NCBI GenBank assembly: GCA_964606485.1
Contig: CAZSGP010000004.1
Coordinates: 92,365 to 156,364 of the forward strand
Direction: 5' to 3'
DNA from: an uncultured Planctomycetia bacterium
GTDB lineage: Bacteria; Omnitrophota; Gorgyraeia; 2-02-FULL-51-18
DNA: 64,000 nucleotides
Part shown: positions 25,872 through 58,911 of the stretch, in pieces
Layout of the letters: every line of letters begins with the position of its first letter
How positions within the stretch are numbered: the stretch's first letter is position 1
Program-made: the position numbers and the translations under genes
Notes under the pieces: model-generated
Seen by the model: the letters and a program-made list of their open reading frames with translations, nothing else
Database searches by the model: none
Told to the model about the DNA's origin: nothing

Positions 25872-26675
25872 TTAGTCCGATGTGTTATACACTCTCATTA
25901 AATGCCGGTTAGCTACTTCTTTAAATTCCTCGTCTCTCTCTAAATCCACTCGCAACTCTCGATACGCGTAAGAACCGGTCAGCTGGTCATCCCAGTCGTA
26001 AAGCTTCATTTCCGACGGCAGTCCCGTTGTTTCCTCAAATACCGTCTCAACGCGGTAGGCAAAATAATCTTCGTCATCTGTCGTGTCCTCAAACGTCACA
26101 CGCGTCGCGGCTCCAGAGTGTTCTACTTTCAATTTATGCTGTTCGTACGCTTTTAAAACCGCCTTCGAAAAATCATAAAGAAAAGTTCCGATCCCTGCGT
26201 CTTCAATGTTATAAGAGCCGCTTCCTTCCCGAATCCACGGACTGTTCTGCTCTAAAAAAATCACCGGCGCAAACCCAAGCAATAGCCCTGGCTTGTGAAT
26301 GGCCAGTTTGTTGTCATGCTTTCCGCGCTCATAAACAACTTGCAGCCCTTTTTTGTGAGTATTCATCCAGCCCATAAAAAGTTTAAAGGGTTTTTCGAAT
26401 TTGAATAAAATTTTTTCAGTGGCTCCCATTTTTCCATCTTTGTCGAGCTCCGTTTTTTCAAAAAGCGCCTTATAATTTTGAAGTGAGTCGTAGCGCAGCA
26501 GTGCCTTCTCCAAGTTTTCTGCTAGACGGATCTCATCCGGATTCTGAGAAGATAACCTCAGCGCCGCAAGCCCTGCCGAGAGATCTTGAGAGGAAGACGC
26601 CAATACCGCCGGTACGCTCAAAAAAAGAAAGACTCCTAAAAAAATGGAAATCGTATAGGACTTTTTAGAGCTCAC
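25872..26675 (-). CDS. Secreted hypothetical protein
   Basis: Signal peptide MSSKKSYTISIFLGVFLFLSVPAVLASS; 267 aa; no recognisable motif. Confidence 0.4.
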   Translation of the reverse strand: MSSKKSYTISIFLGVFLFLSVPAVLASSSQDLSAGLAALRLSSQNPDEIRLAENLEKALLRYDSLQNYKALFEKTELDKDGKMGATEKILFKFEKPFKLFMGWMNTHKKGLQVVYERGKHDNKLAIHKPGLLLGFAPVIFLEQNSPWIREGSGSYNIEDAGIGTFLYDFSKAVLKAYEQHKLKVEHSGAATRVTFEDTTDDEDYFAYRVETVFEETTGLPSEMKLYDWDDQLTGSYAYRELRVDLERDEEFKEVANRHLMRVYNTSD

Positions 26676-36671: not shown

Positions 36672-37124
36672 CTAGATATGAAAGGTGATGTTTTGACTAC
36701 CTTTTGATTTGATTAACTTTCGTGTCTCATGGATCAAATCATGAAGCGTAGTGGACTGTAGACCCTCGTCCAATGAGGCTTTGAATCGCTTCCAGAATAA
36801 AAGCTCAGCCACTTGCGCCTCGCTGGGAGTATCGGTGGCTAGTGTGGGGCTAATTCCAGCAAAAGCTTTGGGAGTCAGCGTATAAAAAAGGGTTTCAAGA
36901 CTGATTTCGGACGGCTTTTTGGCAAGTACATAACCGCCTTGCGGACCGCGCAGGGTTTTAACCAGCCCCTTCTTCTTAAGCACATGCAGAATTTGCTCAA
37001 GGTAAGCCGGCGAAATATTTTCCTTTTTTGCAATTTGAGAAGCGGAAACCGAGCCCTCCGCGTAACGCCCGGCTAAAAAAAGAACGGCCTTTAAACCGTA
37101 AGTGGTGCGAGTTGAAAATTTCAC
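36672..37124 (-). CDS. Rrf2-family transcriptional regulator, cysteine-free (CymR-like rather than Fe-S IscR/NsrR-like)
   Basis: wHTH N-terminus MKFSTRTTYGLKAVLFLA...SQIAKKENISPAYLEQIL. There are no Cys residues anywhere in the 150 aa. Confidence 0.8.
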   Translation of the reverse strand: MKFSTRTTYGLKAVLFLAGRYAEGSVSASQIAKKENISPAYLEQILHVLKKKGLVKTLRGPQGGYVLAKKPSEISLETLFYTLTPKAFAGISPTLATDTPSEAQVAELLFWKRFKASLDEGLQSTTLHDLIHETRKLIKSKGSQNITFHI

Positions 37125-37312
37125 CGAGTCGATCGAATTTTAACGATGTTGATTTCTGTGCTAATCGACTCGAGCTTCTCGAGAATTTTTTCTTGGCTTG
37201 ATTCAATTTTATCAAGCCTTGAAAGAATGGCGGTGTTGTCCGCACTTTCCTCGGCGAACGTAAATGAAGCAAGCGACATTAAAGTGAGTGTTAAAAAAAT
37301 TGTTTTTTTCAT
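37121..37312 (-). CDS. Small secreted protein (63 aa)
   Basis: MKKTIFLTLTLMSLASFTFA signal peptide followed by an amphipathic helix. This is gene-caller-level evidence only. Confidence 0.35.
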   Translation of the reverse strand: MKKTIFLTLTLMSLASFTFAEESADNTAILSRLDKIESSQEKILEKLESISTEINIVKIRSTR

Positions 37313-37489
37313 TTTCGGGGTCTCCTTGTGAGAATTAAAATTCCGTAAAGAATAAAAATACTGGCCAGTGCCCATGCCAAACCAAATTTTTCAAATGGAT
37401 AGGGGATTTTTCGGATTCTAAAATACCGGTCCGTCAACCGGTACACGCCCAAAAAAAGACCGGCCGGTAAAAGACCGTACAGAAAAAAA

Positions 37490-38032
37490 TTAGTAGCTCT
37501 CGCCAGCCAGCGGTTCAACTTTGATGCCCCGCGATCTTAAGAATTTAATACCCGCTTCTAAATTTTTCTCGGTTCCTTCAAGCTCCAGCGTCATCTCCCC
37601 AATGGTTTCGGTGACACGCGCTTTACGGATATTGGGCATGATGTCGAATTTGGTCGCCATCAAAAACACAGCCGGTTCTTTGATTTGGTTTTGGGGAAAC
37701 ACGAGCGTCACTTGAGTTTTTACTTTTTTAGCTGTCTTTGATTTCGCGGGTTTTCCAGCACCACCAGCAATGGCCGGAATAATCGAAATGTCATCGCCAC
37801 TTTTAAGCGCCGTCTCTTGGCCTTGCAGAAAACGAATGTCTTCTTCATTGACGTAAACGTTTACGAAACGGCGAAGTTTTCCTTCGGCATCACAAATGCG
37901 TTCTTTGATACCTGGATAGGTTTTTTCCAGATGCGCGAGCATGGAGTTGATATCGGCCGCCTCGCAGAGCACTTCAGACTGGCCGGCGGTTAATTTTTGA
38001 AGCGGTGTAGGAATTCTTACTTTGACTGCCAT
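37490..38032 (-). CDS. MoaD/CysO-type sulfur-carrier domain (ending AIAGG) fused to a C-terminal NIL/ACT-like domain
   Basis: Residues 1-91 form a beta-grasp carrier ending ...[15 protein letters not shown] Lys-rich linker follows, then an ~70-aa domain ([12 protein letters not shown]...GIKVEP). Confidence 0.65.
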
Positions 38033-39279
38033 ACGTCCTCCTTGATCTTTTTTTCGCCTTTTAAAGCGTGTTCAAAAGATTCCAAATTTGCCTTAATCTT
38101 ATACGGCTTGCCGATGTGGTCCGTGATCGCTTCCTGGGTCTTGAGTCCATTTCCAGTAATGCAAATCACGACTGACTCATTTTTGGGAATGACCCCGTTT
38201 TCGATGAGCTTCTTCGTCACCGCGGTGGTCACACCACCCGCCGTTTCGGTAAAAATTCCCTCGGTTGAAGCCAAGAGCTTAATGCCATCAATAATTTCCT
38301 GGTCGGTCACCGTTTCGGCACAGCCGCCCGAGTCGCGCATGGCGTCCATCGCGTAAATGCCGTCAGCCGGGTTTCCAATCGCCAATGATTTGGCGATGGT
38401 CTTTGGCTTCACCGGTTTAATGATTTCGCTTTTGTCTCTCATCGCTTGTGCAACGGGAGAACAGCCCTCGGCTTGCGCGCCGTAAATTTTCGAATCGACT
38501 TCGTCAATCAAGCCGAGCTTTTTAAATTCTTTAAACGCTTTCCAAATTTTGACCAGCAGCGAACCGCTCGCGACCGGCACTACAATGTGCTTAGGGGTTT
38601 TCCATCCGAGCTGTTCCATCACTTCGTAGCCGTAGGTTTTGGAACCTTCAGCGTAATAGGGACGAATGTTAATATTTACGAACGCCCATTTGTAACGCGA
38701 AGCAATTTCCGCGCAGAGACGGTTCACGTCATCGTAATTTCCGTCGACGGCCACAAGATTCGGATTGTAAGCGAGCGCTCCGACGACTTTCCCCATTTCT
38801 AAATCAGAGGGAATAAAAATAAATCGATTGAGACCCGCCCAGGCGGCTTGAGCACTCACGGAACCGGCTAAATTTCCGGTCGAGGCGCAGGCTACGGTTT
38901 TAAAGCCAAGCTCTTTGGCTTTGGTGAGAGCGACGGCCACCACGCGGTCTTTAAAAGAAAGGGTTGGGTGACAAACGGAGTCATCTTTAATATAAAGCTC
39001 TTTAACTCCCAGCACTTTGGCGAGATTGTCCGCTTTAAAAAGCGGGGTGAAGCCTGCATGAAATCCGACCGTCGGGGCGCCATCAATCGGCAATAAGTCA
39101 CGGTAACGCCAAATCGACTGGGGGCCTTTTTCGATCGATGCGCGGCTAATCTTTTTCTTAATTTGTTCGTAGTCATAGTCGACTTCGAGGGACCCAAAGC
39201 AAAATTCGCAGACATAGGTTGCCGCAATCGGATAAATCCGCGAACATTCCCGGCACTTCAAACCTTTTACAAGACTCAT
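38017..39279 (-). CDS. Threonine synthase family PLP enzyme with N-terminal Zn-ribbon (ThrC or sulfur-carrier-dependent MetM-like)
   Basis: CxxC...CxxC ribbon (CRECSRIY...CEFCFG), the PLP lysine in PTLSFKDR, and a fold-type II Gly-rich loop. Confidence 0.8.
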
Positions 39280-39312
39280 AATCCTCTTTTCCTAATCAGA
39301 CTGACTAAGTTA

Positions 39313-40338
39313 TCACTTCTGGGGGGCTGATTCAACCTTGCCCGCGCTGAGCTCTTTGAGCAAACCGTTCTCAAAAAGTCCCGTCAAATCTGGCTCCTTT
39401 TTAAGAAAACCAGCTAGATACGCCGAATGCGCCTGCTGTTTCACCGTCTCGGCGAGGGGATCCGTCGTAAACGCCACCCGCTTCCAAGCCGAGTCGAGGA
39501 TGATCTGATCCATGGGTTTTCCGGTTTCTCGCTCGATTTCCTTTTTAAAAGCGGCCTTCGCCTCTTCGGGATGAGCGTTGATCCAAGTTGTGAGCTCCAC
39601 ATGAGTTTTTAGAAATTTTTTGACGAGTTCCGGATTTTTTTTCAGAAACTCGGTACGCACTAAGACCACCGTGGTGGCGTATTTCCCATCGGGCCAGAGA
39701 GAAGATTCCTCCAGATACACTTTTGCGCTAGCGGTTTTTTCTAAAATCGAAACCCAGGGCTCCACTGTCCAAGACGCTTCAATTTCTTTTTTAAGAAAAA
39801 GAGAAACGTGGTCGGAATTAGACACTGGCAGCACCGAGACGTCTCCCCCTTTTTCAGACAGTTTTAAATTATTTTGAGCAAGCCACGAACGAAGCGACAC
39901 GTCCTGGGTATTGCCTAGTTGAGGTGACGCGATTTTTTTTCCGTGAAAATCTTCAGGCTTTGTAATTCCAGAATCCGCTCGCACTAAAAGGGCTGCTCCA
40001 CCGGAACTCGCGCCCGCAACAATCCGCACCGCTTCCCCTTGGGATTTCACATACGCATTCACCGCGGGACTCGGTCCGATGTACGCAATATCAAGCTGTC
40101 CGGCAAATAGCGCCTCTACCGCCGAGGGTCCGGCATTGAACGTCTTCCAGTCAATCGGAGCATCCGGCGATAAGCTTTTTTCAAACCATCCCTCGCCGCG
40201 GCCGATCAGTGCTTGGGCGTGCGTGATGTTGGAAAAATGTCCAACTCGGACCGCAGTCCGTGACGGATCCGCTGACGTTCTAGTGGCGGACCCGACTCCA
40301 ATTATAAAAATAAAAAATAGCCCTAAGATTTTTTTCAT
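39313..40338 (-). CDS. ABC transporter substrate-binding protein, NitT/TauT (SsuA/TauA-like) family
   Basis: The ATG at 40338 gives MKKILGLFFIFIIGVGSATRTSA (signal peptide). The 149-aa upstream extension of the six-frame ORF overlaps the permease gene and is rejected. Confidence 0.75.
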   Translation of the reverse strand: MKKILGLFFIFIIGVGSATRTSADPSRTAVRVGHFSNITHAQALIGRGEGWFEKSLSPDAPIDWKTFNAGPSAVEALFAGQLDIAYIGPSPAVNAYVKSQGEAVRIVAGASSGGAALLVRADSGITKPEDFHGKKIASPQLGNTQDVSLRSWLAQNNLKLSEKGGDVSVLPVSNSDHVSLFLKKEIEASWTVEPWVSILEKTASAKVYLEESSLWPDGKYATTVVLVRTEFLKKNPELVKKFLKTHVELTTWINAHPEEAKAAFKKEIERETGKPMDQIILDSAWKRVAFTTDPLAETVKQQAHSAYLAGFLKKEPDLTGLFENGLLKELSAGKVESAPQK

Positions 40339-41093
40339 CGTCTTTCCAGCCCCCAAATAACCCGGACTTCTCGTTCCAAGCGTCCAAAAATAAAAATGTC
40401 CATAACCACTCCGATAACGACGATCACAATCATCACGGCAATCACCTGGCTCATATCGTTGAGCTCGCGGCCCATGTTTAAAAGATGTCCTAGTCCTAGG
40501 CTCACAAAAAGAATTTCTCCTGCCATCAGGGAACGCCAAGCAAAAGACCATCCCTGCTTGAGGCCCGCCAAAATGGACGGGAACGCGGCTGGTAGAACGA
40601 CTTCGGTGAAGAGCCGCATCCCTTTGGCGCCCATATTCACTCCGGCTCGCAAAAAAAGAGGTTGGATGGATTTGACGCCGCCGTCCGTCGCAATCGCCAC
40701 TGACAACATCGATCCCATCACCACGACGAAAATAATCGCGGACTCGTTTAATCCAAACCATAAGATAGCTAGGGGCAACCAACAAATGCTCGGCAAGGTT
40801 TGAAGGCCGACGAAAAATCCACCGAGCGTTTCATCTAAAATTTTAAATTTCCCGATCAAGAGACCTAGCAGCACTCCAAAAAAAACAGAGATGCCATATC
40901 CAATTACAAGGCGCTTCATACTGACACCGATCGCAATCAAAAACGAGCGGTCTGCGAAACCCAATTGCAGGGTTTCCAAAACCTGCCCGGGTGACGGGAA
41001 AAGATACGGAGGCCAGATCTTTAAATTATAAAAAAATTGCCAGCCGGCAATCAGCAGTCCATAGAACGCAAGTTGCCTTAAAATTTTGAGCAT
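40335..41093 (-). CDS. ABC transporter permease (SsuC/TauC-like)
   Basis: 252 aa with 6 TM segments and a binding-protein-dependent transport signature region. Confidence 0.8.
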   Translation of the reverse strand: MLKILRQLAFYGLLIAGWQFFYNLKIWPPYLFPSPGQVLETLQLGFADRSFLIAIGVSMKRLVIGYGISVFFGVLLGLLIGKFKILDETLGGFFVGLQTLPSICWLPLAILWFGLNESAIIFVVVMGSMLSVAIATDGGVKSIQPLFLRAGVNMGAKGMRLFTEVVLPAAFPSILAGLKQGWSFAWRSLMAGEILFVSLGLGHLLNMGRELNDMSQVIAVMIVIVVIGVVMDIFIFGRLEREVRVIWGLERR

Positions 41094-41102
41094 GCGTTCC
41101 TA

Positions 41103-42032
41103 TTAGATATTAAAATATGGTTCAAGACTCAAATAACGTTCGCCAGAATCTGGGAAAAGCGTCACGACGGTTTTTCCTGCGCCTAAACTCTTAGCCACCT
41201 TTAAGGCGCCTACACAGGCCGCACCACACGAAATACCGGCAAAGATTCCTTCTTCTTTCGAAAGCCTTTTGGACATCTTGTAGGCTTCTTGATCTTCGAC
41301 GGCAATAATTTCGTCTACAATCTTTCGATTCAGAACATCCGGCACGAAACCTGCGCCGATTCCTTGAATCATATGCGGACCGGGTTTACCACCGGACAAA
41401 ATTGCAGACGTTGCCGGTTCCACCGCCACGATTCGGATATTTGGAAATTGTTTCTTTAAAACTTCTCCCACACCGGTCAACGTTCCGCCAGTGCCGACTC
41501 CGGCCACGAACGCATGAATCTCACCTTCGACGTCGTGCAAAATTTCCTTAGCGGTCGTTTTTTTGTGCGCGCCCGGGTTGTCCGGGTTCATAAACTGTTG
41601 AGGCATAAAAGCACTCGGCGTTGCCGCGACAATCTCACGCGCTTTTTCGACTGCTCCGACCATGCCATCACGCGCCGGAGTCATCACTACTTGCGCGCCA
41701 AAACTTTCTAAAATTTGGATCCGCTCCTGGCTCATCGCTTCCGGCATGGTGAGAATAACCTTGTAACCCTTCACCGCTCCGACAATGGCAAGGCCGATGC
41801 CGGTGTTACCGCTTGTGGGCTCCACAATCACGCAACCCGGTTTCAGCAGTCCTTTTTTTTCAGCCTGCTCGACCATGTTGAAAGCAATACGGTCTTTGAC
41901 ACTGGCGCCCGGGTTAAACATTTCCAATTTCGCCAAAACAGTCGCCGAGTTTTTTTCCACGACTTTGTTGAGACGCACGATCGGCGTATTACCAATGAGT
42001 TCTAACGCGTTTTCGTAAACTTTGTTATTCAT
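41103..42032 (-). CDS. cysK: Cysteine synthase (O-acetylserine/O-phosphoserine sulfhydrylase)
   Basis: The PLP lysine in [21 protein letters not shown], and full-length CysK/CysM similarity. Confidence 0.9.
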
Positions 42033-42250
42033 TACGCTCCCCCACCCATATAAAAAATAAACTCCACTTTATCCCCGTTTTTAATTTCCGTCGTCTCGTA
42101 GTCGAGTTTCTGTAAAATATTTTCGTTTATTTCAACCGTCACAAGCTCCGGTTTCATTTTCCATTTCGTGAGTAGGGCTGTGACGCTTAGACCTGCCTGA
42201 ATTTCTTGGGGTTTTCCGTTCAGCGTAATCTTAATCAGTTGGTCGGCCAT
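42032..42250 (-). CDS. ThiS/CysO-like sulfur-carrier protein ending ...YMGGGA
   Basis: A 72-aa beta-grasp protein. A C-terminal Gly-Gly followed by one extra residue suggests protease maturation. It lies between the JAMM protease gene and cysK. Confidence 0.65.
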
Positions 42251-42262
42251 ATTTTCCTTTTC

Positions 42263-42664
42263 TTAATCGACGATATTAATTGTTTCTTCCGACACTTTTT
42301 CGTTTTCAATCTTAAATGAACGTAAAATGGGTTTTTGCATATCTGAGAGTGACACGATCAAATAACTGGGCTCTGGGTAAAACGCAAGGCGCACATCTTT
42401 TTGGGACGGAAATGCCTCACTCGCCACATGCGAGTGAAATATTCCCGTCAGTTCTAATTTCAAATCGCGCATTTCTTTAAAAACCTTGAGCTGTTCTTTT
42501 GGATCCATAAAGTAACTGACACTCGCCTCGTCCATGTTGCGCATGGGGAAATATTTTGAACCTTCCTTTTCCTTCGAACCCGCTAAAATGCCGCAGGCCT
42601 CGTTGGGAAATCCAGCCTTGGCGTGTGCGATCATGTCGTTGTAAACCGATTTTTTGAGTTTCAT
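42263..42664 (-). CDS. JAMM/MPN+ metalloprotease (Mec+ type sulfur-carrier C-terminal hydrolase)
   Basis: JAMM motif E..HSHVASEAFPSQKD (H-x-H-x7-S-x2-D). Confidence 0.8.
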   Translation of the reverse strand: MKLKKSVYNDMIAHAKAGFPNEACGILAGSKEKEGSKYFPMRNMDEASVSYFMDPKEQLKVFKEMRDLKLELTGIFHSHVASEAFPSQKDVRLAFYPEPSYLIVSLSDMQKPILRSFKIENEKVSEETINIVD

Positions 42665-43494
42665 TAGATATTGCTCCCCACGTTGCGCTCGGCAGCAGTC
42701 AGCGGCCGGTGCGTGGTTTCAATGTCGAGTTGTTCGCGCGCAACTTTGTCGATTTCGTCCTTCAACGAGGACATGATGCGCGCTTGTATCGTTAAAAGAT
42801 GCGGATCTTGTTCTGTGCGCGGTCGTGGCACGTGAATCGCGTACTCGCCTTTAATTGCACCAGGCCGCGCTGAAATTTCGAGCACGCGGTCGGCTAAAAA
42901 TGTCGCTTCGCGCACATTGTGCGTCACAAAAAAAATGGTTTTCTTCGTTTTCTGCCAAATATCCTGCAGTTCTTCCATCAGCATCTGGCGAGTTTGAGCG
43001 TCGAGAGCAGCAAACGGCTCATCCATGAGTAAAATTTTGGGGTCCATGACGAGCGCTCGCGCAATCGCCGCGCGCTGTTTCATGCCGCCGGAGAGTTCGT
43101 GAGGATGTGCGTTTATAAATTTCGACAGATGCACCATCTTGATCGCCTCCATCGCGCGCTCACGTCGTTCGGCTTCCGCGACACCCGCGATTTTCAAACC
43201 AAAACTCACGTTCTCTAAAACGGTGAGCCACGGAAAAAGAGCCGCTTCTTGAAAAACCACAAGCCGGTCTGGCGAGGGACCGGTCACGGCCTTGCCTTCT
43301 ACAAAAACCTCTCCAGAGTCGGGGAATTCCAATCCCGCGATCATCGAGATCAGCGTGGACTTCCCACAACCCGAAGGACCGAGCACGCAAATAAATTCTC
43401 CGTCCTCAATGCTGAAATTCACGTCCCGAAGGACCGATATTTTTTGGCCTTTTTGCTTAAAACTTTTATGAATGTGTTTTAAAGAAACTTTCAT
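42664..43494 (-). CDS. ABC transporter ATP-binding protein (SsuB/TauB-like)
   Basis: Walker A GPSGCGKST, the LSGGMKQR signature, and Walker B LLMDEPF. The ATG at 43494 overlaps the cysH stop as TAATG. Confidence 0.85.
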   Translation of the reverse strand: MKVSLKHIHKSFKQKGQKISVLRDVNFSIEDGEFICVLGPSGCGKSTLISMIAGLEFPDSGEVFVEGKAVTGPSPDRLVVFQEAALFPWLTVLENVSFGLKIAGVAEAERRERAMEAIKMVHLSKFINAHPHELSGGMKQRAAIARALVMDPKILLMDEPFAALDAQTRQMLMEELQDIWQKTKKTIFFVTHNVREATFLADRVLEISARPGAIKGEYAIHVPRPRTEQDPHLLTIQARIMSSLKDEIDKVAREQLDIETTHRPLTAAERNVGSNI

Positions 43495-44198
43495 TATTTT
43501 TTGGGCAAGTGCAATCCGCACTCTTTGTGTTCGGGGTTTTCCCACCACCAGCGACCCGCGCGCACATCTTCGCCAGACTTAACGGCCCGCGTGCAAGGCG
43601 CACAGCCAATGGACGGGTAGCCCAAATCATGCAGCCTGTTGTAAGGAACTTTATTGGCCTTGATGTAATCCCAAACTTGTTTTTCGGTCCAGTCTGCCAG
43701 AGGATTGATTTTAAAAATTCCTCCGTGCGATGCATCTGTTTCTACTTTTTGAACGTCCGCGCGCGTCACCGACTGTTCACGCCGCAAACCCGTGATCCAC
43801 GCTTCCAAACCGCTTAAAGCTCGATTGAGCGGTTCGACTTTGCGGATGCCACAGCACTCTTTACGGTTTTCGATGGACTCCTTAAACGAAAAAAATCCCT
43901 TCACACGTTCGAGCGTTTCCACTTTTACTGCGTCCGGAAAATACGACTCGATTGAAATTTTATATTTGCGTCGGATCGCGTCCATCACTTCATACGTTTC
44001 TTCGTTCAAACGGCCGGTGTCGAGCGTGAAAATGCGCGCAGACGGATCAATCTTTACTAAAAGATCAATGAGCACCACGTCTTCGGCGCCAAAGGAAGAG
44101 GCTAATGCAATCTTAGAACCGAATTGCTTGATCGCCCACCGCAAAACAGTTTGCGGATCTTGATTTTTAAATTCTGAATTTAATTTTTTAATATCCAT
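43494..44198 (-). CDS. cysH: Adenosine 5'-phosphosulfate (APS) reductase, Fe-S type CysH
   Basis: PAPS_reduct fold with the C-terminal ECGLH motif, a Cys-Cys pair (KECCGIRK) and a CxxC (CAPC), consistent with the [4Fe-4S] APS-specific subclass. Confidence 0.85.
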   Translation of the reverse strand: MDIKKLNSEFKNQDPQTVLRWAIKQFGSKIALASSFGAEDVVLIDLLVKIDPSARIFTLDTGRLNEETYEVMDAIRRKYKISIESYFPDAVKVETLERVKGFFSFKESIENRKECCGIRKVEPLNRALSGLEAWITGLRREQSVTRADVQKVETDASHGGIFKINPLADWTEKQVWDYIKANKVPYNRLHDLGYPSIGCAPCTRAVKSGEDVRAGRWWWENPEHKECGLHLPKK

Positions 44199-44202
44199 CG
44201 TG

Positions 44203-44260
44203 TAGGGGCGCGATTCATCGCGCCCTGTTTATAGCGGGCGCAATAAATTGCGCCCCTACG
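44203..44260. repeat. GC-rich nested hairpins in the cysN-cysH intergenic spacer
   Basis: GTAGGGGCGC GATTCATC GCGCCCT GTTTAT AGCGGGCGC AATAAATT GCGCCCCTAC. A 10-bp outer stem encloses two inner hairpins with alternative pairings. It is not followed by a U-tract. Confidence 0.4.
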
Positions 44261-44263
44261 TTT

Positions 44264-45544
44264 TCAAATTGCACTAAAATGTTCCGCTTTTTTTAGAATA
44301 ATCCCGCCGCCGCGCACGTCGTGCTCATGAACAATCACAAAGCGCCCGGTTTCAGGGACCACGTCAAACGTGTCGAATGCCACAGGCTTCTTCGTCGAAA
44401 AAATAATTTCCGCTACTTCATTCTTTGCGACTTCGGTGGCGTTTCTAGAAATTTCCTCGAGTGTCGAAGAGTTGATCACTTTCAAAATAGACTCCACCGT
44501 GCATTCGACTTCTTGAGTGCCCACTTTTAAAAGGTATTTGCCGGCTTTTTGGAGATGTTTATTGCCCATCCAAAATAAATTGGCGTGGAACCGATCGGAC
44601 ACATGCGGCGCCTGGGTTTTTAAAGCGCCGATTTCCCCGCGCTCCACAAAAATCTGATCTTCCATGGTAAAACCAACCGATTGACCCGCGTGGGCTTCTG
44701 ATTTAAGAGGCCCATTCCAGTTTTCGATGGTTTTAATTTTAACGTTTTTGCCTGACGGGTAGAACGCTAGCTCGTCGCCTACCTTGATGCTGCCGCTCTC
44801 TACGCGGCCGGCAATAATGCGTCGCTTGTCGAATTTGTAAACGTCCTGCACCGGGTAGCGAAATGGCGCCTTCGTGCGGTCGTCGCTCGTTGCAAAATTA
44901 TCGAGAATTTCAAGAATCGATTGACCCGTGTACCAATCCATTTTCGTGCTTTTTTGCATCACGTTTTCGCCGTGATACGCCGAAATCGGAACAAACACGC
45001 GGGGCTTCACGCCTATCGTCGACAAATACTGCGTGTACGTTTTTTTGGTGTTTTCAAATACTTCCTGAGAATAATTCACCAAATCCATTTTATTCATCAC
45101 AATCGCAATTTGTTTGATGCCGAGTAGCGACAATAAATACGCGTGTCTCCGGCTTTGTTCCTGAATCCCTTCTTCGGCGTCGATCATGAGAAACGCCACG
45201 TCCGCGTTAGACGCGCCGGAAATCATGTTCTTCAAAAATTCTTTATGGCCTGGCGCATCGATAATGACGTAATTGCGTTTTTTGGTTTTAAAATAAATTT
45301 GTGCCACGTCAATCGTAATGCCCTGATCGCGCTCTTCTTCGAGTCCATCGAGCAAAAATGCAAACTCAAAACCTTTGCCCTGGTCTTCGCAAACTTTTTT
45401 CACATGCGCAAATTTATTTTCAGAAATAAATCCCGTTTCATGCAAAATCCGTCCGACGAGTGTCGACTTTCCATGGTCGACGTGTCCGACCATGACAATT
45501 TTTAACGTTTCCCCGGTCAGCGTGTCTTCAGTGACTTTACTCAT
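44264..45544 (-). CDS. cysN: Sulfate adenylyltransferase subunit 1 (GTPase) without APS-kinase domain
   Basis: GTPase G1-G4 motifs: GHVDHGKST, DAPGH, NKMD. 426 aa. Confidence 0.9.
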   Translation of the reverse strand: MSKVTEDTLTGETLKIVMVGHVDHGKSTLVGRILHETGFISENKFAHVKKVCEDQGKGFEFAFLLDGLEEERDQGITIDVAQIYFKTKKRNYVIIDAPGHKEFLKNMISGASNADVAFLMIDAEEGIQEQSRRHAYLLSLLGIKQIAIVMNKMDLVNYSQEVFENTKKTYTQYLSTIGVKPRVFVPISAYHGENVMQKSTKMDWYTGQSILEILDNFATSDDRTKAPFRYPVQDVYKFDKRRIIAGRVESGSIKVGDELAFYPSGKNVKIKTIENWNGPLKSEAHAGQSVGFTMEDQIFVERGEIGALKTQAPHVSDRFHANLFWMGNKHLQKAGKYLLKVGTQEVECTVESILKVINSSTLEEISRNATEVAKNEVAEIIFSTKKPVAFDTFDVVPETGRFVIVHEHDVRGGGIILKKAEHFSAI

Positions 45545-46353
45545 TACATGTAACCTTTCGCTCTTAATTTCTGCATGGCGTACGTGTCTTCCTGGTCCTG
45601 CGCACGGCCCGCTCGTTCAGAGGACTTCGTCGCTTTAAGCTCTGTGATAATTTCATCGACGGTGCTCGCGTTCGAATCGATGGGAAATGTGCAAGGCGCG
45701 CATCCCAAACTCCGGTAACGCTTTCCGTTTTTGGAGTAGTACAAGTCCACAAACGGAATATTTTCGCGCTTGATGTACTCCCACACATTCACTTCGGTCC
45801 AGTGTAAAAGCGGATGAATGCGGATATGCGTATTCTCATCAAAATTGGTTTTGAACTGATCCCAGAGCTCCGGCGGCTGATCCTTAAAATCCCATTCGAA
45901 GTTTTTGTCGCGCGGCGAAAAGTAGCGCTCTTTGGCGCGAGTGGATTCTTCGTCGCGACGGATGCCTAAAATCAAACCCTTATAATCGTACTGTTCCATG
46001 ATCTGCTGGAGACCGGCGGTCTTCAACGCACTGCAGCAAACCATACGGCCCTTGGTGTGGTTCATTCCATCGGCCAAAGCCGCTTTGTTCTGACCGACAA
46101 TCAAATTAAGATTCCATTCCTTGGCGTACTTGTCGCGAAACGCGATCATCTCGGGGATTTTGTAACTCGTGTCAATGTGAACGAGCGGAATTGGCACGTG
46201 GCCATAAAACGCCTTGCGGGCGAGCCACAAAAGCACATTGGAGTCCTTGCCGATTGACCACAACATGGCCAATTTCTTAAATTTTTTGTACGCTTCGCGC
46301 AAAATGAACACCGATTGGTGCTCTAGCTTGTCTAAATGGTCTTGAGAATCCAT
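45544..46353 (-). CDS. cysD: Sulfate adenylyltransferase subunit 2
   Basis: PAPS-reductase-like ATP-PPase fold with SIGKDS in the P-loop context; 269 aa. Confidence 0.9.
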
Positions 46354-46445
46354 GGCTTCATCCTTATATGACTATTTTAGTAATGATTAGTTGTGAAATA
46401 TTAATAACATATATAACTATTACTGTCAAGTATAGAGCCCGCTGT

Positions 46446-47348
46446 CTAGACGGCTTCAACCTCGTGGATTTTATTCAGCTCGATATGCACTTTCCGGTCC
46501 GGGCGCCGGGTAATCATGTCCTTAAAACGAGCATTCCAGACAATATCTTCCGGCGTATACGAGAATCGGGCATTCACGGCTTCCCCCACCGTGTCATCAA
46601 CACCGGTCAGTGAGGCCAAAATTTCGATTTCAGCGTGCTGCATTTTCCCAGAGTCCATTCCGTAGAGAGGGCTCGATTCATCAATCGGGTGAACCGCCGT
46701 CCAGGTCAGTGCAAAAAGTGGTGAGCGGCTGCGCTCGAGTTTTAAATCATACAGGCGGCGAAATTTTTCACCCTCTTTTGTAAATTCGTTCTTAATGAGC
46801 ACCACATCCATGTGTGCTTCGACGATTTGGCTTAAACGTTTGTTGGCCACGCGAAAGATCAGCGATGCAACGCCGTCGTAAACGCCGATAATCGCCACAT
46901 TGCTAAAAATAACTCCAGCAGTGGGCTTTGAAAATCGCGCAAATAAAAGTCCGGTGATCATCGCCACGCTGAGAAGTCCGACAAACGCTTCCACGGTCAC
47001 AAGGAGATTGGGCACAAAAGCCAAGGGGCTGATGCGGCCGTACCCAATCGTCGCAAAAGTTTGGACGCTAAAGAAAAAGCAGTCCATGAAATGAAGAATG
47101 AGATTGTCGCGACGAATGCCCGAAAGCGCTGCTGGCCCACACAAAAAATAGGCAAAAGCGAAGAAGAGATTCACGGTTAAATACGTTCCGATCACAAGAC
47201 TAAAAAACTCCGTCCACGTCATCGAAAGTAAGCTGTGATACCCGTCCGTGCCGAAGCGCTTTTTATAGCCTTCGCGCGCAACGTTGAGTGTGCCGTCGCG
47301 GTTTAAAACGCGCCAGCTTTTGGGAGCGCTAGATCCGTTCGATGACAT
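46446..47348 (-). CDS. Inward-rectifier-type potassium channel (KirBac family)
   Basis: Two TM segments flank the pore helix with the selectivity filter TIGYG. A cytoplasmic Ig-like C-terminal domain follows. Confidence 0.8.
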   Translation of the reverse strand: MSSNGSSAPKSWRVLNRDGTLNVAREGYKKRFGTDGYHSLLSMTWTEFFSLVIGTYLTVNLFFAFAYFLCGPAALSGIRRDNLILHFMDCFFFSVQTFATIGYGRISPLAFVPNLLVTVEAFVGLLSVAMITGLLFARFSKPTAGVIFSNVAIIGVYDGVASLIFRVANKRLSQIVEAHMDVVLIKNEFTKEGEKFRRLYDLKLERSRSPLFALTWTAVHPIDESSPLYGMDSGKMQHAEIEILASLTGVDDTVGEAVNARFSYTPEDIVWNARFKDMITRRPDRKVHIELNKIHEVEAV

Positions 47349-48893: not shown

Positions 48894-50174
48894 ATGAAAG
48901 CGCCAAAGACAATCGAACTCACTGTCGAAAAGCTAGTGCTGGGCGGCCAGGGCTTGGCACGGCAGAACGACAAAACCTATCTGATTTGGAACGCGCTCCC
49001 GGGCGAGACCGTGAACGCGCTGATTTTATCCAAGCGCGGTGGGATTTTTGACTGCATGGCGGTTCAAGTTTTAAAACCCTCTCCGGAAAGGATCAAGGCC
49101 GCCGAGAAACACTCGCTCTCCTGCAGTCCTTGGCAAATCTTGTCGTTTGATTCTGAAATTGAGTGGAAAAAAAAGATCGCGCTCGAAGCTTACCGTCACA
49201 TCGGAAAACTCGACGTGGAGTCTCTTGAGATTTTGTCGGATCAGCATTTTTTTGGTTACCGCAATAAAATGGAATATAGCTTTGTCTCCGACAATGGCTT
49301 GTCGCTCGCTTTCTTCGAGCGCAGTTCGCATCACCGCGCACCGATTGCGCCGTGTCTTTTAGCGCGTCCTGAAATCAACGAAACCGCGGTGAAAGTGCTC
49401 GACTGGCTCAAAAAAGAAAAGTACCCCGAGCCCTGCCTTAAGAATTTGATTGTCCGTTCAGGGGAAGATAAAAAAACAGTGGCGGCTCTTCTCATTCAAG
49501 AGGATTTGGCCATCACCGCGTCTCCGGAACTCGATGAACACTTCACCGGATTTGAAATTTATTATTCGAATCCTAAAAGTCCCGCCGCAGTGCCACACAA
49601 AAAAATCTTAAGCCGCGGATCGTTGATGCTAAATTGGAAATTGCTAAGCGCCGACTTTCGCTTTGGCGCGTTTAGCTTTTTTCAGATCAATCCACCGGTT
49701 TTCCAAATGGCGCTTGAGGCGATGCTTCCTTTTACAAACCCAGAGGATGATATCGTCGATTTTTACGGAGGGGTCGGTGCCATCGGCTTGTCGCTTCACG
49801 GCCGTTACCGCTCGAGTCTCATTATTGATAGCTCTGCCGATGCCATTACCTGCGCCAAAGAAAATATCGAGTGGAATCAGTTTTCAAATTGCAAAGCCGT
49901 ACTCGCGCCCTCAGAGAAAATGATTTCAGAAATCACCAAAGACCGGCTCGTGATTCTTGACCCGCCGCGCGCGGGACTACACGAGGATGTCGTCAAAAAA
50001 ATTCTATTGGAGAAACCATCGCGCGTGATTTATTTGTCCTGCAATCCGGCGACCCATGCGCGGGATTTAAAATTGCTTACTCAAGGGTACTCACTGAAAC
50101 TTCTGAAACTGTTTAATTTCTTTCCGCGCACACCGCATATCGAAGCACTAGCGGTGCTGGATCATCTCTCGTAA
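48894..50174 (+). CDS. rlmD: 23S rRNA (uracil-5-)-methyltransferase RlmD/RumA family
   Basis: N-terminal TRAM domain, and a C-terminal SAM-MTase with DPPRAGL and the nucleophile Cys in YLSCNPAT. Confidence 0.85.
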   Translation: MKAPKTIELTVEKLVLGGQGLARQNDKTYLIWNALPGETVNALILSKRGGIFDCMAVQVLKPSPERIKAAEKHSLSCSPWQILSFDSEIEWKKKIALEAYRHIGKLDVESLEILSDQHFFGYRNKMEYSFVSDNGLSLAFFERSSHHRAPIAPCLLARPEINETAVKVLDWLKKEKYPEPCLKNLIVRSGEDKKTVAALLIQEDLAITASPELDEHFTGFEIYYSNPKSPAAVPHKKILSRGSLMLNWKLLSADFRFGAFSFFQINPPVFQMALEAMLPFTNPEDDIVDFYGGVGAIGLSLHGRYRSSLIIDSSADAITCAKENIEWNQFSNCKAVLAPSEKMISEITKDRLVILDPPRAGLHEDVVKKILLEKPSRVIYLSCNPATHARDLKLLTQGYSLKLLKLFNFFPRTPHIEALAVLDHLS

Positions 50175-51781
50175 AGCATGTCATGAACTTTGAATTTTTG
50201 CTCAAGCAAAGGATCTTCGGCTTTCGGTAGCGTGTCGATATAATCGCTCCACTCTTTTTCAATTGTCTTCGCGTCTTTTCCGAGAGCTTCCAGAAGCCAA
50301 TTGTAGTCATCGGACTGCCCAGATTTTTCGGAACTGATTCGTTTTAAATATTTTAAAAATGGAGCGTGGTAGTTTTTCATAAGAAATCCTACAAACCCCC
50401 AGCTTTGGGCGTAGCCTGAAAGCATGGCCTCACTGCAAATGCCGGGAAAACTTCCCATTTTAAAAACCGTAAGCTGAGACAGCGGCCAGAGTTCATTTTT
50501 AGCTTTAGTTTCTTTGAGCAAGTACAACCGTTCGTCGTTCGGTAGTCCCGCCGCAGTGGTTGACGCGTACTCGGCGGTTCCTTCTACAAACCAGGAGTTA
50601 CTGGCCACGATATTTTCCGCCTTTGCTTTCTGCGAACGCGCTTCTAAAAGCGACATGATGAACTGTTTCTTGTCTTCACTAGGCGCTTCGTTTTTCGCAT
50701 CAACGCTGGATTTAGAAAGATCCACCGACTGAAGTCCAAAATTATTGAACACGCCATGCGTAATTTCATGTCTCAGCGTCACGACCGCAATGTCCGAAAA
50801 AATAGAGCGGATGTAACTCAGTGCACGCTCTACTCTCTCCTTTATTTCTTGAGAGAGTCCCTGCACGCGCAGCGCATAACTAGCATTTTTGGACTTCTCC
50901 GCAGTCTGGGACATGCTGTCCGCAAATTTTTGTACGCCCGCCACGGCTTCGGTGATATAACCCGAAAACTGGTCTCCCATAAAATTCATCATAAATAGCG
51001 TTTTGGCTTGCGGATCAAAAAACCCGGGGCACATTTGCGCTGGCACACCGTGAACGGCTGCTTCCTTGGCGTACTCTTCGTATTGATCAAACGCCACGAC
51101 AAAAATTTGACCTTGGGGCGAGCGATCTTTGAAAAGTTCAAAAAATTCACTGTAAATTAACCCGCATTGATCCGTAATCATTTTTTTAATTTCCTTAAGA
51201 GACGCGCCGTCCGTGTCCGTAAACAAGGTTACAAAGCCAAGTTCCGTCGACTTCATTTTCGGGAATGCTGCGGCGATCTCTTCTTGTCGCTTTTGATCTT
51301 CAGCGGCGCGCATCACTTTAAAATCCAATTTTTCTATTTTTTTCCATGGAATGTCCTGGTAAGCAAAAGCTCCCCCGCCCAAGTCTTGCGCGATGACAAC
51401 GACATCTTTTTTGATGTCCGAAATTTTCCCGTCTATGATCTGACCGTTTTGAAGATGAACCACTGGATTATTTTTATAAATTTTAGCGGCGGCGGCTTTA
51501 TCGACAATCACCATGCCATCGCCTTCTAGTTTTTTCCCGGTGTCGATGGATTTGATTTCGCTTCGCTTGAGCGTCATCTCCATGCCTTCCCAAATCACGG
51601 TCACCGAGGTTTTGTTTTCGGATTTAATCTGGCAGCTCATGCCGTTGCCGTTTTTAAGATAAATGGTTGCCGCGGCTAGAGATTTTTTTGGAGAAGCCGC
51701 CAAGCAGACGCTTTGAAACATAAAAAGAGTGAGCATTGAAATGATTAAAAGATTCTTAGGCTTGCTCATTTGGGGGGGCAT
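50162..51781 (-). CDS. Secreted hypothetical protein with an HExxH motif (HEITH)
   Basis: Signal peptide; 539 aa; LRHEITHGVFNNF. Confidence 0.4.
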   Translation of the reverse strand: MPPQMSKPKNLLIISMLTLFMFQSVCLAASPKKSLAAATIYLKNGNGMSCQIKSENKTSVTVIWEGMEMTLKRSEIKSIDTGKKLEGDGMVIVDKAAAAKIYKNNPVVHLQNGQIIDGKISDIKKDVVVIAQDLGGGAFAYQDIPWKKIEKLDFKVMRAAEDQKRQEEIAAAFPKMKSTELGFVTLFTDTDGASLKEIKKMITDQCGLIYSEFFELFKDRSPQGQIFVVAFDQYEEYAKEAAVHGVPAQMCPGFFDPQAKTLFMMNFMGDQFSGYITEAVAGVQKFADSMSQTAEKSKNASYALRVQGLSQEIKERVERALSYIRSIFSDIAVVTLRHEITHGVFNNFGLQSVDLSKSSVDAKNEAPSEDKKQFIMSLLEARSQKAKAENIVASNSWFVEGTAEYASTTAAGLPNDERLYLLKETKAKNELWPLSQLTVFKMGSFPGICSEAMLSGYAQSWGFVGFLMKNYHAPFLKYLKRISSEKSGQSDDYNWLLEALGKDAKTIEKEWSDYIDTLPKAEDPLLEQKFKVHDMLYER

Positions 51782-54333: not shown

Positions 54334-54996
54334 TTATTTTAGATTTCTAGGATTTTCCCAGTTGCCCCATTTCATATTTTTAGGTAAGTGGTCCTCCGGA
54401 GATTTATGCAGCGCAAGTCCTGGATTTTTCTGCCACTCATCCAACAAAAGATTGAGCTTTAAAACATTCACGCGGGTCTCCCCAAAAATTCCCCACTGAG
54501 GCTCTTCGGAAATAAAATCAATGATGCGATTTAGTTCCGTTTCCTCGATGTTTCGCACACGCGCAATCCGCGGAGCCTGATAACGCGCCGCAGCCATCGA
54601 AATGTGCGGGTCGAGGCCGCTGCCGGAAGTCGTCACAAGATCCACAGGAATCAAAGTGGTATTGGAAGGATCGGCGTCTTTCAAGGCTTTCACACGAGCC
54701 GCCGCGGCGTCTTTAAGCGCCGGATTCATCGGCCCAAGATTGGAGCCGGACGACGCGGCCGCGTTATAAGCCGGTGCCGTCGCCGAAAGCCGGCCCCAAA
54801 AATATTTGGGATCATCAAAATTTTGTCCAATGAGCTCCGAACCCACAATTTTTCCGTTTTGACGAATCAAACTTCCGTTGGCTTCATGACTAAATGCATA
54901 CTGCGCCAAGAACGTCACAACGAGCGGATACGCAACGCCGGTTAAGAGCGTCATCACAGCGAACAATAAAATAGCCGATCTTAATTCTTTAAACAT
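54334..54996 (-). CDS. kdpC: Potassium-transporting ATPase subunit C
   Basis: Single N-terminal TM with KdpC similarity; the C-terminal ~30 aa are an extension. Confidence 0.9.
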   Translation of the reverse strand: MFKELRSAILLFAVMTLLTGVAYPLVVTFLAQYAFSHEANGSLIRQNGKIVGSELIGQNFDDPKYFWGRLSATAPAYNAAASSGSNLGPMNPALKDAAAARVKALKDADPSNTTLIPVDLVTTSGSGLDPHISMAAARYQAPRIARVRNIEETELNRIIDFISEEPQWGIFGETRVNVLKLNLLLDEWQKNPGLALHKSPEDHLPKNMKWGNWENPRNLK

Positions 54997-55005
54997 GAGT
55001 CACCT

Positions 55006-58814: not shown

Positions 58815-58901
58815 TTAAAAAATCTCCGGTTTCAACATTGCGATGATGAGATACACCAGCAATGCAATGGCCAGACTTCCGCCGATCCAATAAATTGTCA
58901 T
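58815..58901 (-). CDS. kdpF: Potassium-transporting ATPase subunit F (28-aa TM peptide)
   Basis: MTIYWIGGSLAIALLVYLIIAMLKPEIF. Its TAA stop overlaps the kdpA ATG, and its size and ...PEIF C-terminus match KdpF. It is not in the supplied ORF track. Confidence 0.6.
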   Translation of the reverse strand: MTIYWIGGSLAIALLVYLIIAMLKPEIF

Positions 58902-58911
58902 CGCTTTCTCC

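Follow-up and report, generated by a model that had tools for sequence, protein, structure and literature searches.

A sulfate-assimilation operon of uncultured Omnitrophota with two putative protein-thiocarboxylate branches to cysteine and homocysteine

Gene content of the operon and its conservation in relatives

A 64,000-nucleotide stretch of DNA from an uncultured Planctomycetia bacterium (Omnitrophota in the GTDB lineage; assembly GCA_964606485.1, contig CAZSGP010000004.1, positions 92,365 to 156,364), hereafter the window, carries on its minus strand a sulfur-assimilation operon at positions 37490-46353. The operon joins genes for sulfate activation and adenosine 5′-phosphosulfate (APS) reduction to two small sulfur carriers, each paired with a pyridoxal 5′-phosphate (PLP) enzyme, and to a single JAMM/JAB metalloprotease. 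Calling of open reading frames (ORFs) in the window yields 11 intact, closely packed ORFs, which either overlap by 1-16 nt or are separated by gaps of 9-65 nt, with TAATG stop/start overlaps at two junctions (cysH/ATPase and ThiS/CysK). Gene families were assigned with Pfam and NCBIfam profiles, the NCBIfam scores being judged against the model cut-offs, and every gene listed in the original prediction, a reading of the sequence that preceded this analysis, was recovered. From 5′ to 3′, the operon comprises the following features:

45544-46353, minus strand: cysD, sulfate adenylyltransferase small subunit (PF01507; NF003587, 374.6 bits vs cut-off 195)
44264-45544, minus strand: cysN, sulfate adenylyltransferase GTPase subunit, 426 aa (TIGR02034, 385.5 > 336.1)
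43494-44198, minus strand: assimilatory APS reductase, CysH type with 4Fe-4S cluster (TIGR02055, 278.2 > 235.3)
42664-43494, minus strand: ATP-binding cassette (ABC) ATPase, nitrate/sulfonate/taurine family (PF00005)
42263-42664, minus strand: JAMM/JAB metalloprotease, Mec+/HcyD-like (PF14464, E = 2.4e-25; HSHxxxxxxxSxxD intact)
42032-42250, minus strand: ThiS-type sulfur carrier, 72 aa, with the end MGGG-A (TIGR01683, 66.3 > 37.45)
41103-42032, minus strand: CysK-type cysteine synthase (TIGR01139, 449 > 351)
40335-41093, minus strand: ABC permease (PF00528; best NCBIfam matches SaoP, TauC and SsuC, below cut-offs)
39313-40344, minus strand: SsuA-family periplasmic binding protein with signal peptide (PF13379, NMT1_2; TIGR01728 SsuA_fam, 221.6 > 163.5)
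38017-39279, minus strand: ThrC-like PLP enzyme, 420 aa, with N-terminal 4-Cys zinc ribbon (PALP; TIGR00260, 306.4 > 167.1)
37490-38032, minus strand: MoaD-NIL fusion gene, 180 aa (PF02597 + PF09383)
37760-38032, minus strand: MoaD/CysO-like domain of the fusion, residues 1-91, with the end PAIAGG (PF02597)
37712-37759, minus strand: linker of the fusion, residues 92-107, Lys/Ala-rich, predicted cleavage site (pLDDT < 50 for residues 88-100)
37493-37711, minus strand: NIL domain of the fusion, residues 108-180 (PF09383 match 108-173, E = 2.4e-15)

CysN covers only positions 21-421 of the 632-position model of the bifunctional CysNC and is therefore devoid of the APS-kinase domain, as had been proposed. 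The assignment of an Fe-S type of APS reductase is likewise borne out, by the TIGR02055 score and by the motifs CCGIRKVEPL (CCxxRKxxPL) and SIGCAPCT (SxGCxxCT) of its translation, which serve as ligands of the 4Fe-4S cluster in such enzymes. The ABC ATPase starts with the ATG at 43494, inside the TAATG overlap with the cysH stop (its counterparts in relatives have 279 aa), and its top NCBIfam matches, SaoA, NtrCD and TauB, are all under their cut-offs. The description of the importer as sulfonate-type is sound at the level of the SsuA family but reaches no further than the family. The two independent carrier modules of the original prediction are present as two carrier/PLP-enzyme pairs that share one JAMM protease within a sulfate-activation operon.

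One genome per species was scanned with the ThrC-like protein, yielding 566 relatives, and the best 80 loci (designated by L-numbers where necessary), with ThrC-like proteins 68-86% identical to that of the window, were analysed by calling and clustering ORFs and annotating the recurrent clusters; the counts given next take in only loci with enough flanking DNA. About 60 of the 80 come from Candidatus Omnitrophota, some under the label ‘uncultured Planctomycetia’, and the others from Margulisiibacteriota, Saganbacteria, WOR-1, Nitrospirota/Thermodesulfovibrionia, one Elusimicrobia and one ‘Deltaproteobacteria’. On the 3′ side of the ThrC-like gene, MoaD is found in 70 of 74 loci, NIL in 52 of 57, and a ThiF-type activating enzyme (E1) in 27 of 57; on its 5′ side, CysK is found in 43 of 54 and JAB in 32 of 44, and CysK, JAB and MoaD occur together in 29 of 41. 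Given these counts, the presence of both modules side by side, which had been regarded as unusual, is the rule in these relatives and the common arrangement among Omnitrophota and several uncultured phyla that neighbour them. In 30 loci, ThiS forms an in-frame N-terminal fusion with CysK; in 11 the two are separate, and in 12 CysK stands without a detectable ThiS.

The usual wider order runs from an optional Rrf2 gene through (3′-phospho)adenosine 5′-phosphosulfate ((P)APS) reductase, a CysP/PiT-type sulfate permease, JAB and optional siroheme genes (hemA, cobA-hemD, hemB, hemL) to ThiS~CysK (the tilde denotes fusion), sulfite reductase, TusA, the ThrC-like gene, MoaD, ThiF and a NIL gene of ~80 aa. 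The ThiF-type E1 of these relatives has 271 aa, is devoid of a rhodanese domain and is accompanied by TusA; their sulfite reductase either has 296 aa, with ferredoxin motifs and a separate TusA, or ~775 aa with a C-terminal TusA. The ~775-aa proteins (L061 548-2875; cluster 22, 11 loci) consist of two NIR_SIR modules followed by TusA, and their domain composition suggests that reduced sulfur might be handed directly to the carrier system.

The subclade of the window (L001-L016, L019, L020 and L048) has its own order: CysD, CysN, APS reductase, the optional ATPase, JAB, ThiS and CysK as separate or fused genes, the optional permease and solute-binding protein, the ThrC-like gene, MoaD~NIL, small ORFs, Rrf2, 5-formyltetrahydrofolate cyclo-ligase and RNase Y. 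The gene order of the operon is repeated in the genomes of about 17 close relatives and thus reflects a conserved operon rather than a chance arrangement; the 11 ORFs are 64-90% identical to their counterparts in relatives. The ABC importer, which stands in the place of the CysP/PiT-type permease of more distant relatives, is likewise split around JAB-ThiS-CysK in close relatives (10-12 of them, according to which component is counted), and the ABC genes are missing from L001, L003 and L016. L017 and L018 share the synteny of the subclade but encode MoaD and NIL as two genes. A 1,216-aa ORF without a Pfam match lies between CysK and the ThrC-like gene of L017 (6217-9867), an intermediate relative.

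Sulfur carriers, acceptor enzymes and the NIL domain

The two carriers differ in family and in partner. The carrier next to the ThrC-like gene had been described as a second CysO/MoaD-like protein; its MoaD domain is indeed CysO-like (47% identity to CysO of Mycobacterium tuberculosis, 3dwg_C, E = 9e-21), but the whole gene encodes a 180-aa MoaD-linker-NIL fusion. The MoaD domain overlaps the end of the ThrC-like gene by 16 nt; its GG is internal and followed by linker and NIL. Across about 75 homologues the end PAIAGG is invariant, and what comes after it is nothing, 1-20 unconserved residues, NIL (in the subclade of the window) or ThiF (in L062). In MoaD~NIL fusions, about 7-27 aa, variable in both length and sequence, separate the GG from the conserved (R/Q)VxLVFP motif at the beginning of NIL. 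An AlphaFold model of the fusion (39 homologues) consists of two well-folded domains joined by a disordered linker that holds the GG, with a predicted local distance difference test score (pLDDT) below 50 at residues 88-100, and its predicted template modelling score of 0.46 corresponds to no fixed geometry between the domains. At least 120 near-full-length MoaD-NIL fusions are present in public data, out of 1,904 matches.

In the ThiS-type carriers, MGGG is invariant in about 40 sequences. Beyond it, 30 loci continue in frame into CysK, and the remaining sequences carry a tail of 2-27 aa; the carrier of the window ends GGG-A-stop. Its closest PDB match, 2k5p/3cwi, likewise has FMGGG and a tail, and that of the JAB protein, encoded directly 5′ of ThiS-CysK, is 2kks (E = 1.3e-30). 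Since a thiocarboxylate needs a free C-terminus, both carriers must be cut at the GG if they act as carriers, and the alternation of fused and split forms between very close relatives fits a polypeptide that is cut at this position in any case. Trimming by JAMM proteases has precedents in HcyD, which acts on HcyS-Ala in Wolinella, and in Mec+ of Mycobacterium. Because in relatives ThiS is usually fused to CysK and variable tails follow the invariant GG, the single JAMM/JAB protease probably processes both carriers.

Two further kinds of two-domain carrier deserve mention. L062 (13750-14874) and the protein P0397 are MoaD~ThiF fusions in which the E1 follows directly after the carrier GG, and constitute a third kind of precursor. 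The ‘MoaD related protein’ of Thermus thermophilus in PDB 1v8c (165-168 aa) can be aligned with the MoaD-NIL model across both domains and reads PPVAGGG in the middle of the chain. It offers a solved structure of a two-domain carrier precursor, though its C-domain is missed by the NIL profile.

The cysteine module had been likened to the Mec+/CysO/CysM arrangement of Mycobacterium. The order of JAMM protease, carrier and synthase is indeed the same, but the carrier that adjoins or is fused to the synthase is ThiS (TIGR01683), the CysO-like carrier being the one with the ThrC-like enzyme, and the synthase is CysK: it passes the cysK model but falls below the cut-off of the cysM model (TIGR01138, 296 < 394), its nearest PDB entries are CysK enzymes, including M. 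tuberculosis CysK1 (2q3b), and M. tuberculosis CysM is not among the top 60. The resemblance lies in logic and gene order and does not extend to orthology. L032, L045 and L050 have an additional standalone CysK beside an Rrf2 gene. The frequency of the ThiS~CysK fusion, together with these extra Rrf2-linked copies, argues that CysK would take its sulfur from the ThiS thiocarboxylate (ThiS-COSH).

The ThrC-like protein aligns from residue 56 with crystallised threonine synthases (E = 4e-60 to 3e-52). The comparison set comprised the enzymes of Bacillus subtilis (6cgq), Aquifex aeolicus (2zsj), T. thermophilus (1uim) and M. tuberculosis (2d1f) and three co-resident paralogues, from which the clade of the window protein differs as follows:

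PLP-lysine motif: PT[L/F/W]SFKDR in the clade (PTLSFKDR in the window), PTGSFKDR in canonical ThrC
ASTGN loop: ASTGNL in the clade, ASTGNT in canonical ThrC
Phosphate loop: VN(I/V)N(I/L)RP(Y/F)YAEGSK in the clade, VN-S(V/I)NPxR(L/I)EGQK in canonical ThrC
N-terminus: 4-Cys zinc ribbon in the clade, none in the four crystallised ThrCs

All 80 members of the clade show these differences. In the numbering of T. thermophilus ThrC, the clade has L in place of T88, N at S155 with one extra residue inserted, R at N157 and Y at R160, and these changes are invariant across the 80. In the T. thermophilus enzyme, T88, N154, S155 and R160 presumably hold the phosphate of substrate or product that steers catalysis towards threonine. 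The phosphate pocket of the ThrC-like enzyme thus appears to be remodelled relative to true ThrC. An exhaustive search of 1.8 billion representatives found the signature retained in proteins down to ~40% identity, and other branches with either the canonical signature or a third one. Cysteate synthase was considered as an identity for the ThrC-like protein and rejected (TIGR03844, 80 bits vs cut-off 325).

Two lines of evidence from relatives bear on the substrate and product of this enzyme. In three Nitrospirota loci (L070, L072 and L075), a second ThrC paralogue with 36-37% identity lies directly after ThrC-like-MoaD-NIL; its signature is fully canonical, and after it comes a HomK-type homoserine phosphotransferase (TIGR02535, 567 > 446), an enzyme described in bioRxiv 10.1101/2024.10.14.618325. 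The cluster of these loci (2884-7250 in L070), with MetM-like enzyme, MoaD, NIL, canonical ThrC and HomK in this order, is a compact branch point for O-phosphohomoserine, so that the supply of this compound, true ThrC and the ThrC-like enzyme stand side by side. In addition, S-adenosylmethionine (SAM) riboswitches (RF00162) precede two signature-bearing orthologues: one of 52% identity in a Micromonosporaceae metagenome-assembled genome, where the riboswitch (77.2 bits) ends 10 nt before the start codon, and a metagenomic one of 54% identity (71.5 bits), downstream of which a CysO-like carrier is encoded that has 17 residues after its SIAGG. A thiocarboxylate pathway from O-phosphohomoserine to homocysteine by MetM/MetO was reportedly described for Streptomyces albulus by Hasebe et al. 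in 2024 (AEM). The available descriptions of metM-metO in this organism give a ThrC-like homocysteine synthase and a carrier, with a SAM riboswitch upstream and Mec and MoeZ as helpers (PMC12172450; bioRxiv 10.1101/2024.10.14.618325). In light of the remodelled pocket, the canonical ThrC and HomK alongside in Nitrospirota and the riboswitches at the 52-54% orthologues, the ThrC-like enzyme is most likely a MetM-type homocysteine synthase. The proposed likeness of the ThrC-like enzyme and the second carrier to MetM/MetO is thereby reinforced, the adjacency in 70 of 74 loci adding to the altered pocket and the riboswitches, with S. albulus entering by its published description.

A profile built from 21 NIL sequences of these clusters matches in the PDB only the C2 domains of MetN (3dhx, E = 1e-5), and Foldseek places the C-domain of the fusion, which is modelled with a ferredoxin-like fold (beta-alpha-beta-beta-alpha-beta) as in MetN C2, next to 3tuz, 3dhx and 2qsw. 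The invariant Asn and Ala of its PNIRRA motif align with N295 and A299 of Escherichia coli MetN, of which N295 hydrogen-bonds L-methionine (the N295A substitution abolishes binding) and A299 is the interface alanine (PMC6233128). NIL is a separate protein of ~80 aa in most relatives. A NIL-ferredoxin protein is genetically required for the unrelated DUF39 homocysteine pathway (PMC5764234), and a literature search found no paper that ties NIL to a thiocarboxylate system. We infer that NIL most likely serves the homocysteine branch as a partner that binds methionine or homocysteine.

Proposed pathway, alternatives and genomic surroundings

With moderate confidence, we propose that the operon probably makes cysteine and homocysteine via two ubiquitin-like carriers, instead of or besides free sulfide. 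Sulfate would be converted to APS by CysDN and APS to sulfite by the Fe-S APS reductase, as assigned at the family level. Reduction of sulfite and activation of the carriers would need a sulfite reductase, TusA and a ThiF-type E1, which related genomes encode in the cluster. The JAMM protease would trim both carriers to a free Gly-Gly, removing the terminal Ala of ThiS and cutting MoaD-NIL after G91, the latter cut separating a CysO-like carrier from NIL, which would be set free. Once the carriers have been adenylated and loaded with sulfur, ThiS-COSH would deliver its sulfur to CysK to form cysteine, whereas the sulfur of MoaD-COSH would be combined with O-phosphohomoserine by the ThrC-like enzyme to form homocysteine, as in MetM-type enzymes. 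The protease probably also hydrolyses carrier-amino-acid adducts, as Mec+ does in Mycobacterium. The original prediction of fully carrier-mediated synthesis of sulfur amino acids is to this extent favoured by the genomic context of both branches (ThiS~CysK in 30 loci, MoaD next to the ThrC-like gene), the use of the carriers themselves being deduced from sequence.

Several observations weigh against this pathway. By sequence, CysK is a standard O-acetylserine sulfhydrylase and could use free sulfide. Only the homocysteine branch would then depend on a carrier, and ThiS and JAB would have some other function, such as that of a second donor to the ThrC-like enzyme or of a tag on CysK for regulation or solubility. 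The equivalog score and nearest structures of CysK, in which CysM-type features were not found, and the 12 loci with CysK and no detectable ThiS agree with this alternative, which we nevertheless consider unlikely, if deserving of attention: the in-frame position of ThiS at the N-terminus of CysK with an invariant MGGG junction speaks against it, the standalone CysK copies next to Rrf2 suggest that the ThiS-linked copy is specialised, and there are precedents in Mycobacterium CysO/CysM and in operon classes with ThiS, JAB and cysteine synthase (PMC1779556). The ThrC-like protein, for its part, passes the NCBIfam thrC equivalog (TIGR00260, 306.4 > 167.1), and since no canonical thrC is found in the 64-kb window, it might be a threonine synthase here. 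In vitro, a Microcystis enzyme of the MetM-like lineage produced threonine from O-phosphohomoserine and also had threonine deaminase activity; in vivo, it did not raise methionine (PMC12172450). That the ThrC homologue is a housekeeping threonine synthase, possibly with threonine deaminase activity, and MoaD-NIL a regulatory or unrelated neighbour is nonetheless improbable in our view, given the carrier next to this gene in nearly all loci, with ThiF, TusA and sulfite reductase often nearby, the clade-wide alteration of the phosphate pocket, the canonical ThrC and HomK alongside it in the three Nitrospirota genomes, and the SAM riboswitches, rather than threonine-type control, 5′ of two orthologues. 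In the window itself, however, Rfam at the gathering threshold found no SAM riboswitch and only a tRNA, and riboswitch control of the operon in the window is accordingly rejected.

The genes missing from the window form the other part of the case against the pathway. All larger ORFs of the window were searched with Pfam, and tblastn was run with query genes from related loci (ThiF, sulfite reductase, TusA, PHO4/CysP-type permease and siroheme genes). Neither approach found an E1 (ThiF/MoeZ), a sulfite reductase or TusA in the 64 kb, in accordance with the original prediction for the first two, and ThiF, sulfite reductase and TusA were also not found within ±10 kb in about 20 close relatives; sulfite reductase, TusA and the ThiF-type E1 would have to lie outside the window. 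Nor were CysE, APS kinase or rhodanese found in the window, or, by Pfam, a Cys_Met_Meta_PP enzyme (MetY type) in the operon or the window. Three candidates for related functions were ruled out by NCBIfam: the hexapeptide transferase at 23103-23885 as CysE, the TP_methylase at 9495-10178 as a siroheme enzyme (it is RsmI), and the Aminotran_5 protein at 12065-13210 as a cysteine desulfurase (it is PhnW-like). Many Omnitrophota are thought to be host-dependent, and the operon might accordingly be a remnant in a subclade that has lost the ThiF, TusA and sulfite reductase genes kept in the cluster by more distant relatives, its carriers being non-functional or reliant on sulfide or sulfur amino acids from the host or environment. 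We judge such decay to be about as improbable as the threonine synthase role: the 11 ORFs are intact and well conserved, the GG and the catalytic motifs are invariant, CysDN and APS reductase have been kept, which is sensible only with a downstream sulfite reductase, and the window is only 64 kb of the genome. Finally, the carriers might serve molybdopterin or thiamin synthesis and be linked to CysK and the ThrC-like gene by coincidence, as PGAP- and JGI-style names (‘MoaD/ThiS family’, ‘molybdopterin synthase sulfur carrier subunit’) and the thiS equivalog score would have it. This seems very improbable: moaE, thiG and thiH were found neither in the window, which also has no thiF, nor in the 80 loci; CysK, NIL and ThiF are the fusion partners of the carriers, MoaE and ThiG never; and both carriers have C-terminal extensions and an associated JAB, the latter reported to be missing from thiamin and molybdenum cofactor operons (PMC1779556).

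Beyond the carrier-based pathway itself, a more tentative extension, which we put forward as possible but doubtful, is that both carriers arise as ubiquitin-style precursors (ThiS~CysK, MoaD~NIL and, in some genomes, MoaD~ThiF), that one bacterial JAMM protease cuts them at Gly-Gly and that the freed NIL would be an obligatory third subunit, binding methionine or homocysteine and gating the MetM-type synthase or the E1. The products of eukaryotic ubiquitin-fusion genes are processed at Gly-Gly in a similar manner. If NIL is such a gating subunit, this would be its first mechanistic role outside MetN and would provide a link to the NIL-ferredoxin requirement of the DUF39 pathway.

The surroundings of the operon contain further features relevant to its expression:

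46354-46445, minus strand: promoter region 5′ of cysD, with TTGACA, a 14-nt spacer and the extended -10 element TGTTATTAA
37461-37477, minus strand: weak terminator-like hairpin and T-run, 13 nt past the stop of the fusion gene (consensus match only)
36672-37124, minus strand: Rrf2-family regulator, candidate CymR-like (PF02082; CymR is the best specific NCBIfam model, 90.8 bits < 195)

A near-palindrome, ACTAAAATAGT (46371-46381), lies ~20 nt 3′ of the cysD promoter, and close relatives have ACTAAATTAGT in the same place. Both the TTGAC(A) / TATG.TA pattern and the ACTAA-N-TTAGT element recur 5′ of cysD in close relatives. ACTAA-N-TTAGT occurs once in the window, a frequency expected by chance, and draws its support from the conservation 5′ of cysD; it is a plausible candidate operator for an Rrf2/CymR-like regulator. 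In a sigma-70 scan, shuffled sequence gave more promoter-like sites than the window, and the cysD promoter was not detected because its -10 element ends in A. Rrf2 genes flank the cluster in 29 of the 80 loci. In the window, the Rrf2 gene is translationally coupled to a small ORF (37121-37312) of ~63 aa from an internal Met, with a signal peptide and a coiled coil; close relatives keep the pair (36672-37375) in synteny. Another small ORF, which overlaps (37309-37518), shows weak conservation. The Rrf2/CymR-like regulator and the conserved operator-like palindrome probably control the operon.

Other parts of the window encode diverse functions. Directly upstream of the operon lies a gene for a Kir-like (eukaryote-type inward-rectifier) K+ channel (46446-47348), and a complete KdpABC and KdpD/KdpE potassium uptake system is found at 54334-62437. 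A lipid/polyketide-like cluster at 14856-23885 comprises a DVU_1553-family AMP-dependent ligase, a class-III aminotransferase, a HAD phosphatase, two ketosynthases, two FabA/Z-like dehydratases, a phosphopantetheinyl transferase, a ketoreductase and a hexapeptide acyltransferase with a Pls/PosA-type terminal domain. At 12065-14866, a PhnW/AepZ-like 2-aminoethylphosphonate transaminase, just under its cut-off, stands beside a CDP-alcohol phosphatidyltransferase and an LPG-synthase-TM protein, and these genes may be concerned with phosphonolipid synthesis or head-group modification. For a 1,453-aa ORF at 2126-6487, neither Pfam nor NCBIfam gave a match at the thresholds applied, and a YopX-domain (phage-associated) protein is encoded amid housekeeping genes at 8010-8402. 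The DUF1571 and DUF1570 proteins at 25872-26675 and 50162-51781 belong to families typical of Planctomycetes and the PVC group, which is consistent with Omnitrophota.

Implications and comparison with known systems

If the proposed pathway is correct, large uncultured phyla, mainly Omnitrophota with Margulis-/Saganbacteria and some Nitrospirota, make cysteine and homocysteine via protein thiocarboxylates from one supra-operon, and the MetM/MetO route extends far beyond actinomycetes. The signature ASTGNL / RP[YF]YxEG[SA]K would separate MetM-like enzymes from true threonine synthases, both of which are now called ‘threonine synthase’ by annotation pipelines, and auxotrophy and host dependence could be predicted better for Omnitrophota genomes. 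The natural fusion precursors offer substrates for testing bacterial JAMM proteases, and the operon a tractable setting for the part of the NIL domain in homocysteine synthesis.

Individual components of the operon have counterparts elsewhere. The ThrC-like enzyme shares with canonical ThrC the fold-type II PLP core, the SFKDR motif of the PLP lysine and the ASTGN loop, but differs in the extra 4-Cys zinc ribbon, PTLSFKDR, ASTGNL and the changed phosphate loop. NIL shares its Pfam domain and its fold with MetN C2, with the N295 and A299 equivalents invariant, and, as in the NIL-ferredoxin protein of the DUF39 pathway (PMC5764234), it is again tied to methionine/homocysteine metabolism; unlike in either, it is attached to neither an ABC ATPase nor a ferredoxin but is standalone or located behind the GG of a carrier.

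At the level of whole systems, the homocysteine branch resembles MetM/MetO of S. albulus, as far as the latter has been described, in that a CysO/MoaD-type carrier directly follows a ThrC homologue, a JAMM (Mec) protease is present and a SAM riboswitch lies 5′ of orthologues 52-54% identical to the window protein. It differs from the described S. albulus pair in the fusion of the carrier to NIL, a near-constant third gene in relatives, in its embedding in a sulfate-assimilation and cysteine operon with an Rrf2 regulator and no riboswitch, and in the rhodanese-less E1 of relatives, which comes with TusA. The order of JAMM protease, small carrier and PLP cysteine synthase, and a carrier close to CysO, are shared with the Mec+/CysO/CysM system of M. 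tuberculosis (3dwg); there, however, the CysO-like carrier serves the cysteine synthase, whereas here it accompanies the ThrC-like enzyme and a ThiS-type carrier (MGGG plus tail) accompanies a synthase that is of the CysK type and not an O-phosphoserine-specific CysM, and the window has no MoeZ (rhodanese E1). Associations of ThiS/MoaD, JAB, E1 and SirA with sulfate-assimilation genes were predicted in 2006 (Iyer, Burroughs & Aravind, PMC1779556). With class 4e of that catalogue and with HcyS/HcyD/HcyF of Wolinella, the operon has in common a ThiS-like carrier with one or more residues after the GG and a JAMM protease to take them off, placed amid genes for ATP sulfurylase, (P)APS reductase and transporters, and, in relatives but not in the window, sulfite reductase, SirA/TusA and a rhodanese-less E1. 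In contrast to Wolinella HcyS/HcyD/HcyF/MetY, there is no MetY, and the acceptors are CysK, often fused to ThiS, and the ThrC-like enzyme with a second carrier; in contrast to the description of class 4e, in a catalogue that makes no mention of ThrC, a NIL component is present.

Collectively, the system would work like a merger of the class-4e/Wolinella operons, the Mycobacterium cysteine route and Streptomyces MetM/MetO, and probably represents a form of carrier-mediated synthesis of sulfur amino acids that is widespread in uncultured phyla and has so far not been described. The ThiS~CysK, MoaD~NIL and MoaD~ThiF fusions, the near-constant NIL, the Sir-TusA proteins of relatives and the active-site signature are features not described for those three systems.

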